Assembly (NCBI GenBank): GCA_004321885.1
Contig: SCQK01000007.1
Coordinates: 32,001-96,000 of the forward strand
Length of the DNA: 64,000 bases
DNA from: Patescibacteria group bacterium
GTDB taxonomy: Bacteria; Patescibacteriota; Patescibacteriia; Magasanikbacterales; GWA2-37-8
Direction: 5' to 3'
In this document: positions 4,553 to 47,348 of the stretch, one piece after another
Layout: each line of letters starts with the position of its first letter
Numbering within the stretch: position 1 is the first letter of the stretch
Notes under the pieces: model-generated
What the model was told of the DNA's origin: nothing
Databases searched by the model: none
The model's input: only the letters and a program-made list of their open reading frames with translations
Translations under genes and position numbers: made by a program

Positions 4553-5149
4553 GTGAAGACAATCATCGTTGTGAGGCATCCCGAGAAGGACGGAGACAAG
4601 ATCACGGCACTCGGTGCCATGCAGGCCTTCGCGACCGCGCTGGCGCTCGGCGCCATGTTCCCGAAGATTACCCAGATCCTGTGGTCGGGCGCGAACCGCG
4701 CCTGGCAGGCAGCGATGGTGACCTTGGCCGCGCTCGGTGGCGATGGCCGCTGGCTCAAAGAGAGCCGCGGCTTCCACTTCGAACCGACATTCACGAACGT
4801 CTACGGCAAGGACGCCCCCGCGGCGTTCAAGGCCGAGACGGCCGCCATCAAGGAGCGACTCGGCAAGTCCGCCCTCACCGTCGCCGACGCATTGGAACAC
4901 AGCGAGTACGCGCGCCAGGGCCGAGTGGTTATGACGGACACACTCTTCAAGCTCGCCAGCACGATGAAGGACGACGACGTGGTGCTGGCCGTCAGTCACT
5001 CGCCGTGGTTGGAGCTCGCCGCACTCGACCCGGCGACCATGCCCTACGGCATCGGCGAGGCCGAAGCTGTGGCCTACCACATAGAGGACAGCAAAATCCT
5101 GACCATAGAGCGGGTGTTGTCCTCGCTGGCCGGCAAGGCCAACTGCTGA
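4553..5149 (+). CDS. Histidine phosphatase superfamily protein (phosphoglycerate mutase / SixA-like). It lies in a high-GC patch at about 4380-5260 that is probably horizontally acquired.
   Basis: IIVVRHPEKDGDKITALGAMQA resembles the RHG catalytic motif region. GC content is far above the flanking sequence. The patch splits a tandem paralog family. Confidence 0.55.
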   Translation: MKTIIVVRHPEKDGDKITALGAMQAFATALALGAMFPKITQILWSGANRAWQAAMVTLAALGGDGRWLKESRGFHFEPTFTNVYGKDAPAAFKAETAAIKERLGKSALTVADALEHSEYARQGRVVMTDTLFKLASTMKDDDVVLAVSHSPWLELAALDPATMPYGIGEAEAVAYHIEDSKILTIERVLSSLAGKANC

Positions 5150-8517: not shown

Positions 8518-9285
8518 TCATGTTTCTCCCTATGTCGCCATAAGGCACGGACTATATCATCACCCGTTTTGAGAGAATTTTTTGCTTAGCCGGATGCCAT
8601 GAGCCGATAACTCGGATAAAATCTTGGAGCGAATTCGCTCTCACGAATATGCGCCAATAATCCGGGTCAACTCGCTTGCTGGGATTGTGAACTTTCCCGC
8701 AAACGATGCTCATTTTTTTCAACATCTGTTTAAGCTTGCATATCTTGGCTTTATCCTTTTGCACCAATTGTATATACAGCCGCGCTGTAATGTGGTGCGG
8801 AACGCCGCCTTCGGCGTCAAAGAATCCTCGAATATACGCTTTTTGTTCTTCGCGACTTTTTAGCCGCAATGGATCAAAACGGAAATCCAGAAATGACGCT
8901 AATGTTTCAAGAACATGGACATCTCTGTCTTTTCCTTCGCGATACATCCAAGACGAATAGCCAATCTTTTTTAGAAGTCGCTTTAGCGTTTTTAGCCAAC
9001 CGGTTCCCTTTTGTGAAAAACGGAATCTGCGGTTACTGCTAAATGTGCCGTCGTGCAATGCTCCTAAAAGATATGCTTTTATTTCTCCCCTTAACGGGGT
9101 TCGGCGTGTAGTCTCTGAGGGGTCAATCCCGACTAAGTCGGGACGACTTCCCTGCTGATTGACTGCACCGAAAACTTTTTCACTCATACTGCTATAGTGT
9201 AGCACAAGTAGTTTCGGATACACAGTGTTTCCAGCAAACAGCCGAATTTGTTTTTAGCGATTACTCGCTAAGAGTCGCAATTTGT
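8518..9285 (-). mobile_element. Insertion 1 in the 16S gene (near the 3' end, between CCTTGTT and ACGACTT). It carries a LAGLIDADG homing-endonuclease ORF and is probably a self-splicing intron.
   Basis: The exon sequence is interrupted and resumes at about 9285. The ORF 8552-9223 lies inside. Confidence 0.7.
8552..9223 (-). CDS. LAGLIDADG homing endonuclease, intron-encoded.
   Basis: Motifs YLLGALHDGTF and IRGFFDAEGG. An in-frame palindrome (SRPDLVGID) lies near the N-terminus. Confidence 0.75.
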   Translation of the reverse strand: MYPKLLVLHYSSMSEKVFGAVNQQGSRPDLVGIDPSETTRRTPLRGEIKAYLLGALHDGTFSSNRRFRFSQKGTGWLKTLKRLLKKIGYSSWMYREGKDRDVHVLETLASFLDFRFDPLRLKSREEQKAYIRGFFDAEGGVPHHITARLYIQLVQKDKAKICKLKQMLKKMSIVCGKVHNPSKRVDPDYWRIFVRANSLQDFIRVIGSWHPAKQKILSKRVMI

Positions 9286-9696
9286 TTACGACTTTACCCT
9301 AGTCACTGACCCTGCCTTAATTCCCCGAAGGAAACTTTGGGCATTGCCAGCTCCCGTGGTATGACGGGCGGTGAGTACAAGACCCGAGAACGTATTCAAC
9401 GCGCCGTGGCTGATGCGCGTTTACTAGCGATTCCGACTTCATGAAGGCGAGTTGCAGCCTTCAATCTGAACTGGGGCCGGTTTTGATGGGATTGGCTCCG
9501 CCTCGCGGCTTAGCGACCCATTGTACCGGCCATTGTAGCATGTGTGTAGCCCTGGACGTAAGAGCCATGCTGATTTGACGTCGTCCACCCCTTCCTCCCG
9601 GCCCGCTGTTCGCTTGCTTTCGCAAACGCCCAAAGGGCCGGGCGGTCTCGCGTGAATATTTAACACGCGACGTGGGTTGCGCTCGTTTCCCAACTT

Positions 9697-9985
9697 AATG
9701 GTACACCTCCGGATTATTATCTTCACGCAGACTATTCCTTCACCCTTTGCCGACTAAGTCGGCATGAGGGGCTGGCGTATTAGCGGAACTATAAATTCAA
9801 TCACATCCATGAATTCCGCTCTTGGCAAAATGCCTTAGTCGTTACAGGGTCAACCCACGATTTTATTTAAAATCGGGGCGACTTCCCTCGGAGTTCCCAA
9901 ATTCATATGGTATATTTTACCATTTTTACATGAATTTGATAATGAGGTTCTCCGATATGAGCCAGATTTCTCATATCTCTTTTCA
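9697..9985 (-). mobile_element. Insertion 2 in the 16S gene, about 290 bp with no ORF, interrupting the conserved region around position 1070-1100.
   Basis: GGGTTGCGCTCGTT..CCCAACTTAA is followed by about 290 bp of non-rRNA sequence before ATGTTCACGGCACGAGCTGACG resumes. It shares a cgacttccctcgg motif with the other two insertions. Confidence 0.55.
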
Positions 9986-10118
9986 GAGATAGGCCGCGAG
10001 ATGTTCACGGCACGAGCTGACGGCAACCATGCAGCACCTATCTAGCACCCTCGAAGGCGGCGGCCGTTTCCGGCAGCTTGCAGCTAGTAGTTGAGCCCAG
10101 GTAAGGTTCCTCGTTTGT

Positions 10119-10163
<45 letters not shown>

Positions 10164-10290
10164 TATTCCTTTGAGTTTTAACCTTGCGGCCGTACTCCCC
10201 AGGCGGCGCACTTAACGCGTTAGCTTTTTTGAACGGCACTGACAGGGTCGATACTGCCAATACCTAGTGCGCATAGTTTAGGGCGTGGAC

Positions 10291-11320
10291 TACCAGGGTC
10301 ATTTCACTTTACATTTCTGTAAAGATTGGACTATATCATTTTCTGTAAGCTTTCCACTTGCTTTTCTTGAGATTGACATACTCTCGTATTTTTTCCAAAG
10401 AAAAGCCCGTGTTTTTCGCTATTTCAGAAATCCAGCGTTCTTGAAGTTGAACATCGTTATACATCAGAATCACTTTGGGCAAAACTTCTTCAACCTTCGT
10501 ATAAGGCAGAATAATGCGAAGAAGTTTTTTTAGTTCCTCGGTGGAACGCAACCAAATTCTGAAGTATTTTTCTTTTTTTCCATTAACCTTTGTAATGGAT
10601 GCCACTCTGACCTTGATTTTCCAGACTGTTTGAAGATATTTGGCTAAAACTTGCACGGCTTTTTCATCAAAGCCATCGGTGCAGATGACGCCTTTTCTAC
10701 CATTTGAAATGATAGAACCGTCGTCAAACCACCAGATTGCCAGTGATAATGGGCTCATGAAATTTAACCACTTTCTTCGTATTTCCAATCTGTTGTTTTT
10801 ACAGGTCAGATTGTGCATTTCCGTCAATGCTTCCAGGGCCTTGCTTTGATAACGAAGTTTTGCTTGTTTGCTAAACCCGTTATCTTGTTCTTGAAGCCAG
10901 ACCGACTTATCCGAGGATATCTCGGACAGCTGCCTGACCTTCCAGTCAAAGTAGGCTTTCTGAATGACGGAGTGCCTGAAAGAAAATCTGGCGTTTTTGT
11001 ATGGCCGATGGATTTTTAACGACCCGTCGCCCAACAAAGAGCCGAGGATTATTTCTTTCACGCCATTTGACAAAGGCACATTAGAATAATTATTCATAAT
11101 TTATGAATGATAATTAAATGCGCCAACTATCTTTCATCAACTTCATAGTCTCTACGGGGTCGAACCGCATTTGGCGGACGACTTCCCTCGGGATTGTCCA
11201 AACTGATGGTAGTATTTTTTTGTTTGGAGTTTCCCCGATATAGCTGAATGCTCATCTCAACATTGCTGTTGAGAGGGACACCGTTTATGCCGACTTGTTC
11301 CGCCTTAGGCGAACAAGCGA
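10291..11320 (-). mobile_element. Insertion 3 in the 16S gene (around position 790-800), with a LAGLIDADG ORF.
   Basis: The exon breaks after GGACTACCAGGGT and resumes at ATCTAATCCTGTTCGCTCCCCACGC, 11322 onward. Confidence 0.7.
10336..11097 (-). CDS. LAGLIDADG homing endonuclease, intron-encoded.
   Basis: Motifs ILGSLLGDGSL and LAIWWFDDGS. Confidence 0.75.
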   Translation of the reverse strand: MNNYSNVPLSNGVKEIILGSLLGDGSLKIHRPYKNARFSFRHSVIQKAYFDWKVRQLSEISSDKSVWLQEQDNGFSKQAKLRYQSKALEALTEMHNLTCKNNRLEIRRKWLNFMSPLSLAIWWFDDGSIISNGRKGVICTDGFDEKAVQVLAKYLQTVWKIKVRVASITKVNGKKEKYFRIWLRSTEELKKLLRIILPYTKVEEVLPKVILMYNDVQLQERWISEIAKNTGFSLEKIREYVNLKKSKWKAYRK

Positions 11321-12493
11321 CAAAGGATCTATCTAATCCTGTTCGCTCCCCACGCTTTCGTCCATGAGTGTCAGAAACGTACCAGCAAGCTGCCTTCGCC
11401 TTTGGTGTTCTTGCGGATATCAACGCTTATTACGACTACACCCGCAATTCCGCTTGCCTCTTCCGTCCTCAAGTTTGGTAGTTTCAAAGGCAATCTTAGA
11501 GTTAAGCTCTAAGTTTTGACCCCTGACCCGCCAAACCACCTGCGGACGCTTTACGCCCAATAAATCCGGATAACGCTTGAGGTCTCTGTATTACCGCTAC
11601 TGCTGGCACAGAGTTAGTAACCTCTTATTCACGAAGTACCGTCACGAATTCTTCCCTCGTAAAAGCGGTTTACGACCCGAAGGCCTTCATCCCGCACGCG
11701 GCGTCGCTCCATCAGGCTTTCGCCCATTGTGGAATATTCTCGACTGCAGCCTCCCGTAGGAGTCTGGGCAGTGTCTCAGTCCCAGTGAGGCAGGTCACGC
11801 TCTCACGCCTGCTACTGATCATCGCCTTGGTGAGCCATTACCTCACCAACTAGCTAATCAGACATAGGCCCCTCTCCAAGCAGCTTGCGCTTTTAAATGC
11901 GAATGACTTTTGTCCCCGCATTGCCATCGGGTTTTAATTCGCCTTTCGGCGAGCTATCCCCGTCTCGGAGGTAGGTTACCAATGTGTTACTCACCCGTTT
12001 GCCGCTCGTAATTCCCTTGCGGGAACACGTCGCTCGACTTGCATGCCTTAAACACGCCGCCAGCGTTCATCCTGAGCTAGGATCAAACTCTTAAAAAGAG
12101 TTGATCTCGTTCTACCCGACTTCGCCAAAGCTACATCGGGTAAGATGAACGAGTTAATATATACGGATTTATTTATTTATACTCGGTCGCCTCTTCGGCA
12201 GCCGAGTTTCGAATAGACTTTATTTTGTGGTTTTTGTCACGTTTGTGTTGTCAATGAACTTCTTACCCTGTTCGCAGAGTAAGAAAAAAGAGTAATCAAA
12301 TCTTGATTCCTCTTTTCTCTTACCAGTATCCACCGAAGGCGGACTTAGAAGACAAGCTGAATTGTCGGAGGTGCTTTTGCTGAAGGATTTATATTAAATC
12401 TTAGCTTTCGCATTTTATCATATACCAAAATTTTGTCAAGGGGGTGGGTGTGGGCAGAATGTGGATAAAAAAACAATAAAAACCTGCTCTGTA

Positions 12494-18712: not shown

Positions 18713-18770
18713 AATCACCCTTGACATCCCGCGCCAAGCGTAATATAATGAAAAATTCTGATTGACTTTA

Positions 18771-19868: not shown

Positions 19869-20459
19869 ATGGAACCAAAATCCCAATATCTTATCCCCAC
19901 GGTCATAGAAAAAACCCACTACGGCGAGCGGGCCTACGACATCTATTCGCGGCTCTTGCAAGACCGCATTGTTTTTTTGGGCACGCCCATAGACGACGGC
20001 GTGGCCAACACGGTCATTGCCCAGCTCTTGTTTTTGGACAATCAAAGCCCGGAAAAAGACATCAAGCTCTATATCAATTCCCCGGGCGGCTCGGTGACCG
20101 CCGGCATGGCCATCTACGATACGATTCGCTATATCAAAGCCGAGGTTTCCACCATTTGCATTGGCCTGGCCGCCAGCATGGCCTCGGTGATTTTGGCCGC
20201 CGGCGACAAAGGCAAGCGCTTTGCCCTGCCCAACGCCGAAATTATGATGCACCAGGTAATGGGCGGCATGGAAGGCCAGGCCAGCGACATCAAAATCCGT
20301 TCCGAGCGCATTTTGCGCATCAAGGACCGGCTAAACCAAATTTTGGCCAGCCACACCGGCAAAACCATACAGCAAATTGAAAAAGATACGGACCGCGACT
20401 ACTTTATGACGGCCCAAGAGGCCTTAAACTACGGCTTGATTGATAAGGTGATTGAATAG
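19869..20459 (+). CDS. clpP: ATP-dependent Clp protease proteolytic subunit.
   Basis: The catalytic Ser lies in [10 protein letters not shown] and the His in MMHQ. N-terminus [17 protein letters not shown]. Confidence 0.9.
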
Positions 20460-20512
20460 AAACGAATTTTTAGCTAAAATTAGCAAAATTTAAGCATTTC
20501 TGCCCTGCCCCC

Positions 20513-20541
20513 TTGACAAAAATAGCCATTTGTGCTATACT
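20513..20541 (+). promoter_or_regulatory. Near-consensus sigma70 promoter (TTGACA, 17 bp spacer, extended -10 TG with TATACT).
   Basis: ttgacaaaaatagccatttgtgctatact. Confidence 0.6.
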
Positions 20542-20548
20542 GTTTTGT

Positions 20549-20815
20549 TACGTACAATGAAAAGGCGGGTATATGAATTGCCCCGCCAACACAGTCGGAC
20601 ACGGATTTATGCATGCTATCCAGTTGTTCCAGACCCATATAGTATGTATCAACCCGTATCCACGACAAGCATGGAGGTGTGTTAGAGGGTGGCACTGGCG
20701 CAAGCTCGTCTGCTTCTTTAACACATCTTCTTGGATGCGGTTTCTAAGGGGGGGTTTCACTCCCCCAAAAACTATTAAAACCCCGTTGCCTTAATTGGCA
20801 ACGGGGTTTGTTTTC
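20549..20815 (+). ncRNA. Predicted orphan non-coding RNA of about 265 nt, class unknown. It runs from the consensus promoter to a strong intrinsic terminator.
   Basis: There is no credible ORF (only a Cys/Trp-rich 73 aa frame). It is GC-rich and hairpin-rich. The terminator is at 20777-20815. Confidence 0.4.
20777..20815. terminator. Bidirectional rho-independent terminator. It serves the putative ncRNA on the plus strand and the VanW gene on the minus strand.
   Basis: aaaaccccgttgccttaattggcaacggggtttgtttt, with a stem flanked by A and T runs. Confidence 0.65.
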
Positions 20816-20820
20816 GCGCA

Positions 20821-20864
20821 CTATGGCTCCACAGCCCCGACTAAGTCGGGGACTATGGAGCCAG
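20821..20864. repeat. Palindromic element of about 43 bp, identical to the copy at 39904-39944.
   Basis: ctatggctccacagccccgactaagtcggggactatggagccag. Confidence 0.8.
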
Positions 20865-22773
20865 CGGCTGTCGTTCCATCAATCGTACTGGTGGCTCCGC
20901 CAGCCGGCGGATCCGGCCCCACCATGCAAATCTGGGGCAAGGGCCGGTAATAGCTGTCAAACACCCGCTCAATCTGTTCCGAAGACGAGGTGACGCGCGT
21001 GTAAGTAAAACTGGCCACTGCCCCGCGGAACGCGTTCTGGCATTTTTTCTCGCCTGGTTTCAGCTTGTCGCTCTCAACTGTTTGCGGCTCGCCGGCCGGA
21101 ATCCACTTGCTTACCTTGGGGTGGTCATACCAGCCCTTGCGCCCGTCGCTCTTGCCCCACAAAGTAAAAACCAGACGCTGTTTCACATAGTCAATTTCGG
21201 TTTGCAAAAGCAGGTAGCCACCCGTGTCGTTTAAGAACCGAAAATCAATATCCGGCTCGTAAAGCGTGGCGTCCGTGCCCGGATTGCCGTTGACCGGGTC
21301 CGCGTAATAACCCACCACCAGGGAATGGTTGCGCCTTTGCGTTATCGGCATGCCCGAGTTCATGGCCATTCTAAAAAGCGTGGTGCCTATTTGGCACATG
21401 CCGCCGCCGATTTCGTTTTTTATTTCTTTGCCTTTTATCACGGCCTCGGGCAAAAAACCGACCGCGGCCGTGAACGGCCCGGCGAATTTAATGGCGGAAA
21501 ATTCTTCGCCGGGCGCGATGATAACCCCGTTTAGCCGCCGCACTGCCAAGGCGATATTTTTTATCCGGTTGGTGTGGCTGTCGCGAAAAGTGGAGACGCC
21601 GGCGCCGAGCCTGTCGGTGATGCCCAAATTGTTGGCGTCGGAAACTTTTATATCCGGCTCCATGATACTGACCGATAATGTCAGGGTCTGGGCCCGGCCT
21701 GCCCCTTCGTAATTGCGGGCGCGGAAAATAGCGTCAAGTTCGGCGTAGGTTTTTTCCATATCCAGACTGACGCCCGACTGACTGGCCTGAAATTCTTTCA
21801 CTTTGCCGTCCTCCATCAAAAATTTTGCGTTTTTGGCGGCCACATCCACCGCGGGCTTCACAAAATTCTCCAAATAGGCAAAAACCCTTTCTTTATTCAA
21901 GGCAAACACAAACTCATTGTCAGCCGCGCGCGTTTCCAGCCAATCGGCGTAAACGTTGTTTTTTATGTTCCAATCGCGCCGCTCCTTGGTGCGCGAATCA
22001 ATATAGTTCAAATTCAAATCTCCGGCTGTCAAAACCGCCGGTAATTTTGCCAGTATGGATTCCACGTCCGCTTTATTCACCGAGGGAGAAAAACCGCTTT
22101 GTTTTATTTCAATCGGCGCCAGGGTCAGAGCGGCCATTTTTTGCTCCATTTCCGCGCGCGCTTTGGCTATTTCAAAAATGGCGCCTTTTTTGGCCGGAAC
22201 AATTTCATAGGCGAGCGGCGACAGACTCGTAACTTTCACGTTGGCGTCGCGCGGATTTTCGGCCGCCGGGGCCAAATCGCTTTTAAGCTGTTCAACTAAT
22301 TTATTATCCGTCTGAATTTGCGCCTGAATTTTTTCCTTAAAAATCAAAAAAGAAGGCGGCAATAAAAGGTCTTTCCACCACGGCCCGCCCCGCCCGGCGC
22401 CGAACGCCAAGGCGGCGGTTTCGGCGCTTTTGACGCTGGCCAGCTCCACCGAAGAATCGCCGGCCGGCACCGCGTCTATTTTTAAATCAATTTTCTCGCC
22501 GCTTTTGGGATGATAATAAAAAAAATCAATGCCGTCTTTGGCGATTTTGTCGTTGTAAATTTCCAAAAATTCTGTCGCCTTTTCCGCGCTTAGGCCGCCC
22601 AAGTGATATTGGCCGATGTAAACGCCCGGATAAACTTTATTTTTATAAATCTGCTGATAGGCAAAAGCCGAGGCAACCGCAAAGAGCGCCAAACCAACCA
22701 GCGCAATGAGTGCGAACAGCGCGCTTTTGAGCATGGAATTTTTCTTTTCTGCGGGAGGATTTTTTTCAACCAT
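20821..22773 (-). CDS. VanW-family protein with an N-terminal membrane anchor. The C-terminal tail is encoded by a palindromic element.
   Basis: VanW core GGGMCQIGTTLFRMAMNSGMPITQRRNHS. N-terminal TM ALFALIALVGLALFAV. The last 30 codons overlap the element 20821-20864. Confidence 0.7.
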   Translation of the reverse strand: MVEKNPPAEKKNSMLKSALFALIALVGLALFAVASAFAYQQIYKNKVYPGVYIGQYHLGGLSAEKATEFLEIYNDKIAKDGIDFFYYHPKSGEKIDLKIDAVPAGDSSVELASVKSAETAALAFGAGRGGPWWKDLLLPPSFLIFKEKIQAQIQTDNKLVEQLKSDLAPAAENPRDANVKVTSLSPLAYEIVPAKKGAIFEIAKARAEMEQKMAALTLAPIEIKQSGFSPSVNKADVESILAKLPAVLTAGDLNLNYIDSRTKERRDWNIKNNVYADWLETRAADNEFVFALNKERVFAYLENFVKPAVDVAAKNAKFLMEDGKVKEFQASQSGVSLDMEKTYAELDAIFRARNYEGAGRAQTLTLSVSIMEPDIKVSDANNLGITDRLGAGVSTFRDSHTNRIKNIALAVRRLNGVIIAPGEEFSAIKFAGPFTAAVGFLPEAVIKGKEIKNEIGGGMCQIGTTLFRMAMNSGMPITQRRNHSLVVGYYADPVNGNPGTDATLYEPDIDFRFLNDTGGYLLLQTEIDYVKQRLVFTLWGKSDGRKGWYDHPKVSKWIPAGEPQTVESDKLKPGEKKCQNAFRGAVASFTYTRVTSSSEQIERVFDSYYRPLPQICMVGPDPPAGGATSTIDGTTAAGSIVPDLVGAVEP

Positions 22774-46593: not shown

Positions 46594-46723
46594 GCGTTGT
46601 CTCACACATTAATAATGATTGTGAATAAAAACTGTGGACAAAACGCCTTGACAAAAAACTCTTTTCTTGATATATTAGATTCGGATAGTAACGATGAAAA
46701 GACCCTCGTAAGAAGATACGTGC

Positions 46724-47218
46724 TTACGGGGTGCTTTTTTTATACTCAACTTTATTCCTCAAATCACTAACAAAACTAATTTTGCCGCCGGCCACTTTCC
46801 GCAATAAGTACGAGCAACTGGACGGCGCGGGCGCGATCAAGTGGCAAAACTTATTTTGTTTTCGCAAATAGTCAACTAAACAATGAAAATCACCATCGCC
46901 GCTGACAATTACGGCCTGATCATAATTCTGATATTCTATCATCGTGTGTAAAACCAATTCGGCGTCACAATTCCCTTTTACTTCACCGTCTTTCAATATT
47001 AGAGTTGGTTTAAATATCAAAATGTAACCAACCTCCTGAAGAAATTTATACAACTCCTCATTGCCAAATAAAAAACCAATGAACATAAACGCCTTCGCGA
47101 CGCTATATTTGTCTTTCAAATACCTGCGAAAACGAAAATAATCCAGCTTCCAACCAATGCGCTGCATACTGAAATATAGATTCTGACTGTCTATAAACGC
47201 GAAATTGTTTTCTTTCAT
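46724..47218 (-). CDS. NYN-domain (PIN-like, LabA-type) protein.
   Basis: AFIDSQNLY, DAELVLHTM and VIVSGDGDFHCLV motifs. Confidence 0.65.
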   Translation of the reverse strand: MKENNFAFIDSQNLYFSMQRIGWKLDYFRFRRYLKDKYSVAKAFMFIGFLFGNEELYKFLQEVGYILIFKPTLILKDGEVKGNCDAELVLHTMIEYQNYDQAVIVSGDGDFHCLVDYLRKQNKFCHLIAPAPSSCSYLLRKVAGGKISFVSDLRNKVEYKKSTP

Positions 47219-47236
47219 ACTTCGTTTCCCTCCCCG

Positions 47237-47348
47237 CCCCACTGTCATTCTGAGCGGAGCGAGGAATCCCTTACACTACGTTAACAGTTTCTATATCCCC
47301 TTTTTTCAAATGCAACACTATCGCCAGCGCCTCGCGCAGCCAAGAGGC
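47237..47348. repeat. 112 bp direct repeat (copy 2), overlapping the authentic 3' end of the gene 47271-48254.
   Basis: See copy 1. Confidence 0.75.

Follow-up and report, generated by a model that had tools for sequence, protein, structure and literature searches.

RESULTS

A conserved, covarying RNA unit downstream of clpP

We analysed a 64,000-nt stretch of contig SCQK01000007.1 (assembly GCA_004321885.1, positions 32,001 to 96,000; hereafter the window) from a Patescibacteria group bacterium of the Magasanikbacterales, and within it a short transcription unit at 20513-20815, counted from the first letter of the window. This unit is very probably a conserved structured noncoding RNA (ncRNA) gene of a new family. 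A first-pass annotation, made from the letters alone, had proposed a candidate ncRNA of unknown class here, which was correct and can be upgraded to a conserved structured ncRNA family: homologues were recovered from genomes and metagenomes, they have in common a hairpin with covarying base pairs, and the hairpin carries a near-invariant internal loop.

The closest ClpP proteins to the one encoded 5' of the unit, among 185,579 species genomes, came from metagenome-assembled genomes (MAGs) of Candidatus Magasanikbacteria (74-82% identity). Searching with the intergenic region (nhmmer) located the element directly 3' of clpP in 15 genomes and elsewhere in 2, and homologues were present in 17 of 22 related species genomes, at one copy per locus. 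A covariance model, R1, added two loci, L031 (70 bits) and L028. The latter belongs to a 38%-GC MAG named only as 'Patescibacteria group' (ClpP identity 71%), where the RNA again lies just 3' of clpP; the remaining ClpP loci, from other phyla, gave no further R1 match. Across 20 genome loci R1 scored 59-105 bits, and 17-34 bits on the reverse strand. In metagenomes from JGI and ENA, an exact-pattern scan found at least 120 matching contigs, and each of the 100 metagenome loci tested with R1 gave one match (64-102 bits). The family comprises 116 distinct core sequences in all. The RNA family is conserved in Candidatus Magasanikbacteria and in at least one other Patescibacteria lineage. A phage or mobile origin was rejected: the core pattern had no match among IMG/VR viral contigs, and the RNA is single-copy and syntenic. 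An exact look-up of the ClpP protein returned a single 1.4-kb contig, which ends inside the RNA.

The comparative alignment that the first-pass annotation had recommended yielded abundant covarying base pairs. A first alignment of 18 sequences gave one hairpin of 29 pairs under RNAalifold, with double compensatory changes at 14 of them. Alignment A2 was built on R1 from 100 distinct sequences; standard pairs filled 97.0% of the cells, compared with 86.7% after column shuffling and 42-50% when the partner was slid by 1-3 columns. Changes on both sides occurred at 20 of the 29 pairs (309 cells), and none of 500 shuffles matched any of five measures. The closing helix was paired in 99.6% of its A2 cells, with double changes at five of its nine pairs, and in L028 it has been wholly swapped to GGACAGAC/GUCUGUCC. 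The upper hairpin comprises two helices in A2, with double changes at 11/15 pairs and, in the apical helix, at 4/5. The apical loop varies across the family (4-7 nt; usually UUCG, UACG or UCCG). Two wobble pairs are almost fixed, G23.U98 being G.U in 100 of 100 sequences and the apical G55.U71 in 97 of 100; these pairs and the strand asymmetry of the R1 scores establish the plus strand as the functional one.

In the 18 genomes that nhmmer recovered without the use of any pattern, and in L028 and L031, found by covariance model, the 10-nt internal loop showed little or no variation. These 20 sequences are the unbiased support for loop invariance, most metagenome members having been fetched with a pattern that fixes ACAAGCATGG, CTTCTTG and the 3'-strand RRTRCRG. 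An intramolecular partner or pseudoknot for the loop, sought in the 5' and 3' parts of the RNA, appeared at chance level (p ≤ 0.05 in 9% and 3% of sequences, respectively).

Folding of the window's own sequence agreed with the earlier description of the transcript as dense in hairpins. The minimum free energy (MFE) of the plus strand (20548-20815, 268 nt) was -111.3 kcal/mol, compared with -74.0 ± 4.7 kcal/mol for 200 dinucleotide shuffles (z = -8.0), none of which folded as well; the reverse strand of the unit reached only z = -4.5. The unit had also been called GC-rich, which it is not (47.8% G+C, against 49.4% for the window).

TABLE 1 Features of the RNA unit, in window coordinates
Feature	Position	Strand	Remarks
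-35 hexamer TTGACA	20513-20518	+	Read directly and by promoter scan
Extended -10 element TGcTATACT	20533-20541	+	TG at 20533-20534, TATACT at 20536-20541; read directly and by scan
Predicted primary transcript	20548-20815	+	About 267 nt; end within the U-run past the terminator
5' hairpin GGCGGG/CCCGCC	20564-20587	+	MFE fold; belongs to the lineage-variable 5' domain
Putative anti-closing element GGACACGG	20597-20604	+	Can pair with CCGUAUCC (20655-20662), replacing the 3' strand; 7/8 complementary
Variable hairpin enclosed by the alternative helix	20605-20653	+	MFE fold; stem kept, sequence and length clade-specific
Conserved core hairpin	20652-20743	+	91-95 nt across the family
Closing helix, 5' strand CCGUAUCCA	20654-20662	+	Pairs with 20732-20740 (9 bp)
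Near-invariant asymmetric internal loop CGACAAGCAU	20663-20672	+	10 nt, opposite a single U at 20731
Upper helix of core	20673-20730	+	Invariant base G-C / G.U / R-U / G-C (GGRG/CUUC), covarying variable middle, conserved apex
Apical GGC-tetraloop-GCU	20697-20706	+	Loop GCAA in the window
Closing helix, 3' strand UGGAUGCGG	20732-20740	+	From the covariation alignments
Small G/C hairpin GGGGGGGU-UUC-ACUCCCCC	20748-20766	+	MFE fold; between core and terminator
Bidirectional intrinsic terminator	20778-20815	both	Common to the convergent VanW-domain gene (stop codon 20821-20823)

Coding potential

A 73-amino-acid (aa) open reading frame (ORF) had been described as the only one in the unit and as unlike a protein. 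The first statement did not hold, as the unit also contains a 51-aa ORF on the plus strand and ORFs of 70 and 71 aa on the minus strand, none of them conserved; the second was well founded. Among the first 18 homologues, ORFs over the core were in different frames, truncated or absent, and the window's frame meets a stop inside the hairpin in 49 of 100 homologues. The variation in hairpin length, 91-95 nt, shifts the reading frame. Column entropy at the three codon positions was flat (0.77, 0.71 and 0.74), indicating no codon periodicity, and the 73-aa product had no Pfam match and no entry in a 15-billion-protein collection. A small protein gene was therefore rejected, with no conserved frame, no excess variation at third positions and no database match.

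Promoter, terminator and gene architecture

The TTGACA/17 nt/TG-n-TATACT promoter reported at 20513-20541 is present, matching 11 of 12 hexamer positions and carrying the extended -10 TG. It had been ranked as the best match in the window, a rank that belongs instead to a site at 18721 (12/12); four further sites equal it at 11/12 plus TG. Two of the equal-scoring promoters serve the 16S rRNA gene (12439, minus strand) and tRNA-Ser (34117, plus strand), and the RNA promoter therefore belongs to the stable-RNA promoter class of this genome. The perfect site (18721-18749, plus strand) is a sigma70 promoter, TTGACA-17 nt-TATAAT, about 70 nt 5' of the first gene of the DHH-clpP cluster, DHH/DHHA1.

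The strong bidirectional terminator seen at first pass stood up to direct reading. Its 13-bp stem (20778-20809) consists of 10 bp of CCCCGUUGCC/GGCAACGGGG plus three A-U pairs around a 6-nt loop, with an A-run on its 5' side and UUUGUUUU on its 3' side, reaching 20815. The scan called it on the minus strand, and the plus strand reads as equally canonical.

In the window the unit follows clpP (19869-20459, plus strand; Pfam CLP_protease, E = 7e-86) and faces a convergent gene (20821-22773, minus strand) for a 650-aa protein with VanW and PG_binding_4 domains. The neighbours further out are a DHH/DHHA1 phosphoesterase gene, upstream of clpP, and an Hsp20 gene, past the VanW gene. Much of this setting recurs: clpP is within two genes of the RNA in 102 of 138 homologous loci, the VanW-domain gene likewise in 102 of 138, and the wider conserved order is DHH - clpP - RNA - VanW - hsp20. 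A Clp-ATPase-like gene is found downstream of the RNA in two loci (L008 and L088). The fixed setting among clpP, hsp20 and Clp-ATPase genes hints at a role in proteostasis or stress, although synteny of this kind is no evidence of function.

The promoter is kept across the family. About 120 of the 138 loci have an exact TTGACA or TTGACT -35 element, a 16-18 nt spacer and a TAnnnT -10 element, 80-378 nt 5' of the core loop, and the great majority of homologues with a detected promoter also have the extended -10 TG. Most loci have a hairpin and U-run within about 55-90 nt after the core. The RNA occupies the convergent gap between clpP and the VanW gene in either orientation, with 43 loci arranged as ClpP+/VanW-, 10 as VanW+/ClpP- and 14 as other+/ClpP-. 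Because the orientation flips while the promoter stays, the RNA is an autonomous gene and not a 3' untranslated region (UTR) or leader. Co-directional downstream genes are few and mutually unrelated (DUF378-like membrane proteins, a Clp-ATPase-like gene, small hypothetical proteins).

Unit length varies with what surrounds the core. The shortest members (L098, L085, L109 and L028) are single rods of about 130-145 nt, in which the basal stem followed by a U-tract is itself the terminator. Longer members, including the window's, add 5' hairpins, a G/C hairpin after the core and a separate terminator, and homologous units measure about 190-490 nt because their 5' domain differs greatly in length and sequence. 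Close relatives have another 5' hairpin at the equivalent of 20564-20587, followed by a common AACAC, and most long-form homologues have a hairpin of other sequence at the equivalent of 20748-20766.

An alternative helix and two predicted folds

Most long forms carry a 5' element that may compete with the 3' strand of the closing helix. Of 114 distinct full-length members, 84 have an 8-mer, mostly 30-50 nt upstream of the core, that is equivalent to the window's putative anti-closing element and complementary at 7/8 positions or better to the 5' strand of the closing helix. Pairing of this element covaries at two positions: position 2 is C:G in 39 cases and U:A in 26, and position 7 is C:G in 65 and U:A in 3. 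The 3' strand of the closing helix covaries with the 5' strand likewise. The alternative helix usually runs on into the variable hairpin that it encloses, and its centre is weak, with position 4 mismatched in 22 of 71 sequences. Counts were made on extracted 8-mers, since the MAFFT alignment A3 had placed this element one column out of register in many of its rows. Because the helix was located by complementarity, its support is its fixed position, the covariation of positions 2 and 7 and the way it extends into the adjacent stem, and not the percentage paired.

The RNA is predicted to take two alternative folds. In the closed rod the invariant stretch forms an internal loop; in the open fold it would become a single-stranded linker between two hairpins, leaving the 3' strand GGAUGCGG free. 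With either helix enforced, the open fold was predicted to be the more stable in 84% of 68 long forms, by a median of 4.6 kcal/mol (interquartile range 2.0-7.2) and by 2.6 kcal/mol in the window, whose unconstrained MFE structure is the open fold with the anti-closing element paired. Since the short forms lack the 5' element, the closed rod would carry the core function, and the switch would be an add-on and not essential.

Known RNA families and resemblances

No tmRNA, RNase P, signal recognition particle (SRP) or 6S landmark had been recognised at first pass, and neither Rfam 15 (4,227 families) nor ARAGORN gave a match at the RNA. At gathering thresholds the window yielded SSU rRNA, a group I intron and tRNA-Ser only, so the unknown class stands. 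In E-value mode over 20400-20900 (501 nt), sub-threshold terminator and hairpin matches appeared, the best being ncr1175 at 33 bits against a threshold of 60. Rfam gave nothing at the RNA in 29 homologous loci (18 + 11), and the 6S, SRP, RNase P and tmRNA models had no match at E ≤ 10 in the 501-nt region or at E ≤ 5 in 18 homologous loci. ARAGORN's only call in the window was tRNA-Ser, and it reported no tmRNA for 10 homologous loci. Of the two outcomes named at first pass as refuting the ncRNA reading, a significant Rfam match and a protein-like 73-aa ORF, neither occurred. The literature searched on ncRNAs of the Candidate Phyla Radiation (CPR)/Patescibacteria contained no description of this RNA.

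Direct comparison with the housekeeping RNAs agreed with these searches. The interruption in the rod is 10 nt opposite 1 nt and not the large two-sided central bubble of 6S RNA; the SRP helix 8 motif with its GNAR tetraloop is absent on direct reading of alignments A1 and A2; and there is no tRNA-like domain, as tmRNA would have. An apparent tmRNA fragment at L133 was the T-arm of an intron-split tRNA gene past the RNA's terminator. That gene (L133 590-975; tRNA-Asn-like, anticodon-loop CUGUUAA) contains a group I intron (618-924, 110 bits), has its own promoter, lies just downstream of the RNA homologue and its terminator, and is missed by ARAGORN. For RNase P, no type A or B model matched, CR-I GGAAAGUCC and CR-V ACAGAAnnCGGCUUA (P4 helix) are absent from the sequence, and the short members are too small.

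Five local likenesses were set aside after the alignments had been read. Group II intron domain 5 has CCGUAU...UACGGUU in common with the RNA, but the AGC triad is missing and a 75-nt insert replaces the short upper helix. The rrn boxA-like CUUCUUUAACA is restricted to the window's own clade, CIRCE half-sites (GCACTC/GAGTGC) occur in one clade only and with the wrong spacing, and CsrA GGA sites are not conserved across clades. A match of 20662-20674 (ACGACAA-GCAUGG) to the 3' strand of helix 34 in the window's 16S rRNA, GACGUCAAAUCAGCAUGG, extends over 12 of 13 bases with a 4-nt gap and was treated as chance.

Other observations in the window and in homologous loci

A second orphan mini transcription unit lies at 46648-46745 (plus strand). 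Its promoter, cTTGACA-17 nt-TGaTATATT, scores 11/12 plus TG and is followed by about 55-60 nt ending in a hairpin, ACCCUCGUAAG...CUUACGGGGUGC, and U7. Possibly another small RNA, the unit begins in a space flanked by two minus-strand genes, and at its 3' side it runs into the end of the gene at 46724-47248. In the region 8528-12098 (minus strand) the 16S rRNA gene of the window spans 2,861 nt for a 1,533-position model, which indicates large insertions, and a group I intron (69 bits) at 8528-9297 overlaps the 3' end of the 16S match. Large 16S insertions and introns are typical of CPR rRNA genes.

At L031, a weak second covariance model match (4645-4726, minus strand, 20 bits) adjoins the main copy (4769-4862, 70 bits) and may be a degenerate tandem copy. 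L010, and L093 which is identical to it, contain about 170 nt 5' of the core a partial internal duplication of the core start (CUCUGUAUCCACGAC), with its own hairpin and a GGAUUUAGAGA 3' strand. This suggests that the 5' domain of the long forms may stem from duplication of the core hairpin. One contig with the new RNA (L121) also carries a DUF3800-II RNA (Rfam RF02961, 2188-2254, plus strand, 56.8 bits). Twelve loci with Magasanikbacteria-like ClpP and flanks (L002, L003, L006, L007, L009, L013, L014, L016-L018, L021 and L023) come from third-party annotation MAGs titled 'uncultured Gammaproteobacteria bacterium', labels that look like wrong taxonomy.

DISCUSSION

Taken as a whole, the data are best explained, with slightly better than even confidence on our part, by a stand-alone ncRNA of a new family that acts in trans, is recognised through its loop and is gated by its fold. 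The invariant loop and its fixed neighbouring pairs would form a specific recognition site, most likely for a protein, and the RNA would serve as a ribonucleoprotein scaffold or as a sequestering RNA. In the long forms, the 5' anti-closing element would gate access to this site by switching folds. A recognition module is preferred to a plain seed because identity is fixed in the helices flanking the loop and at the apex, because the G.U pairs are invariant and because the hairpin measures 91-95 nt throughout. Spacing between the two conserved sites varies by 4 nt at most. Such a conservation pattern is typical of sites read by a protein, or less likely by a small ligand, rather than of an antisense seed. 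The more specific proposal of a module both recognised by a protein and switchable is tentative, and from sequence comparison we would give it somewhat less than an even chance.

Several points weigh against this explanation. The choice of a protein over an RNA or small-ligand partner would follow from the pattern of conservation and from no other kind of evidence. Transcript start (probably about 20548-20550, from the position of the -10 element), end and abundance are likewise predicted from signals in the DNA. Invariance of the pattern-fixed bases in the metagenome set is partly by construction. The comparison of fold energies relies entirely on nearest-neighbour predictions; the alternative helix was found by a complementarity search, in which only 31% of single sequences beat shuffles at p ≤ 0.05; and about a quarter of the family, short forms such as L098, L085, L028 and L109, has no anti-closing element.

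The strongest rival, still unlikely in our view, is a base-pairing small RNA (sRNA) whose invariant stretch, ACGACAAGCAU, is the seed for a conserved target containing AUGCUUGUCGU. Much of the architecture would suit such an RNA, which has its own promoter and terminator, is noncoding and is built of modular hairpins. In most long forms the predicted ground state is the open fold, which would expose the stretch as a linker, and a single-stranded linker between hairpins is the classical presentation of an sRNA seed. The stretch also has no intramolecular partner, and its complement contains AUG, as expected at a start codon. The expected target, however, did not emerge. About 1.07 Mb of flanking DNA, outside the RNA's own antisense, held one match (L139, with one mismatch) and no recurrent site, and the 64-kb window held matches at chance level only. 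Complementarity to the window's 16S rRNA was no better than for shuffled loops, 171 of 200 of which did as well, and the start regions of clpP, VanW, hsp20 and DHH genes (48-60 loci each) did no better than shuffles. A seed would moreover leave unexplained the fixed pairs flanking the loop, the invariant G.U pairs, the conserved apex and the fixed hairpin length, and the short forms can hold the stretch only as an internal loop.

A ligand-sensing, riboswitch-like RNA is a less probable alternative, with a low chance of being correct. Here the loop and its flanking pairs would be the aptamer and the 5' helix the switch, with output in trans or through termination in the short forms. A near-invariant internal loop within covarying helices is an aptamer-like pattern, three covarying strands give two mutually exclusive helices, and in the short forms the whole rod ends in a U-tract. 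L181 and L109 have a small same-strand gene shortly downstream, though only at L181 is there no intervening U-tract. Against cis-regulation of a downstream gene, which we rejected, the commonest arrangements place the RNA's own strong terminator and then a convergent gene after the core, the few co-directional downstream genes form no consistent set, and a cis-regulator would be expected to keep its orientation and its neighbours, which this RNA does not. In the long forms the alternative helix also leaves the terminator out.

Less probable again is a universal housekeeping RNA, such as 6S or SRP 4.5S, that has diverged so far in this lineage that current models miss it. The promoter is of the rRNA/tRNA class, the gene is single-copy and widespread in the lineage, and the short forms, single rods whose ends pair, resemble 4.5S and 6S RNA. 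No 6S, SRP, RNase P or tmRNA match appeared either in the window or in the roughly 190 kb of related loci, but far more sequence would be needed to show that these RNAs are absent. The permissive Rfam searches stand against this idea, as do the 10-versus-1-nt loop, the missing GNAR/AGCA helix 8, tRNA-like domain, CR-I and CR-V, and the unpaired ends of the window's form.

Least credible of all is a reading in which clpP and the VanW gene simply have their 3' UTR and terminator here, or in which the region encodes the 73-aa protein: its position directly 3' of clpP, the terminator in common with the convergent gene and an ATG with AGGCGG 4 nt upstream could be cited for it, but it is refuted, as far as sequence analysis reaches, by a near-consensus promoter that persists despite its variable distance to the core, by units in both orientations to clpP and away from it, and by an ORF with neither conservation, periodicity nor database match.

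Returning to the explanation that we favour, a trans-acting RNA recognised through its loop, several described RNAs offer partial parallels. 6S RNA (SsrS; RF00013 and relatives) is similarly stand-alone, strongly promoted, single-copy and roughly 150-300 nt long, and the short members of the new family resemble it in forming a rod whose 5' and 3' ends pair and whose stem is interrupted along its length. 6S RNA is moreover known for a helix rearrangement that matters to its function. In the new RNA the interruption is one-sided, whereas the 6S bubble mimics an open promoter, and the ends of the window's form are unpaired. SRP RNA (4.5S; RF00169, RF01854) has in common with it a hairpin, an asymmetric loop with a long 5' side and a single 3' base, a conserved apical region and a fixed distance between sites, and both genes are of housekeeping type. 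Unlike SRP RNA, the new RNA has no symmetric loop and no GNAR/AGCA motif, its 10-nt loop is of unrelated sequence and its apical loop varies. The raiA motif RNA, OLE, ROOL and GOLLD were likewise detected through conservation and covariation, are lineage-restricted, and have their own promoter and terminator and no obvious regulated gene. Their sequences and structures are unrelated to the new RNA, which none of their Rfam models matched, is much simpler (one conserved hairpin plus variable ones) and is hosted by CPR/Patescibacteria.

Mutually exclusive helices are known from riboswitch expression platforms and from riboswitch-controlled sRNAs (EutX/Rli55, SreA/SreB). The new RNA is like these in its three covarying strands, one of which has two partners, and in the aptamer-like core within a stand-alone transcript. 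It differs from them in that its alternative helix spares the terminator and that a quarter of its members are without the competing strand.

The general kind, a stand-alone bacterial structured small RNA, is thus known; the core motif, the host group and the three-strand switch are new. Whether it also represents a functionally new class is doubtful on present evidence, and we hold with similar reserve the idea of a CPR-specific ribonucleoprotein or sensing system, without counterpart among described bacterial RNAs, of which this RNA would be a subunit or regulator. Such a system would have at its centre a lineage-wide, housekeeping-level, two-state RNA, its near-invariant asymmetric loop read by a partner not yet linked to any RNA. 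Given the clpP, hsp20 and Clp-ATPase neighbours, the partner could connect to proteostasis or stress.

A large part of bacterial diversity belongs to the CPR/Patescibacteria, whose genomes of about 1 Mb leave dispensable genes little room and which cannot be grown alone; almost no lineage-specific ncRNAs described for them were found in the literature searched. What the finding offers is a covariance model, a core defined at 92 nt and an architecture of two states that can be tested. If the partner is new, the RNA would found a new functional RNA class; if the RNA is a cryptic analogue of 6S or SRP RNA, annotation across the lineage would be corrected. With its rRNA/tRNA-class promoter, near-invariant loop and over a hundred covarying relatives, the RNA is probably important to these cells.

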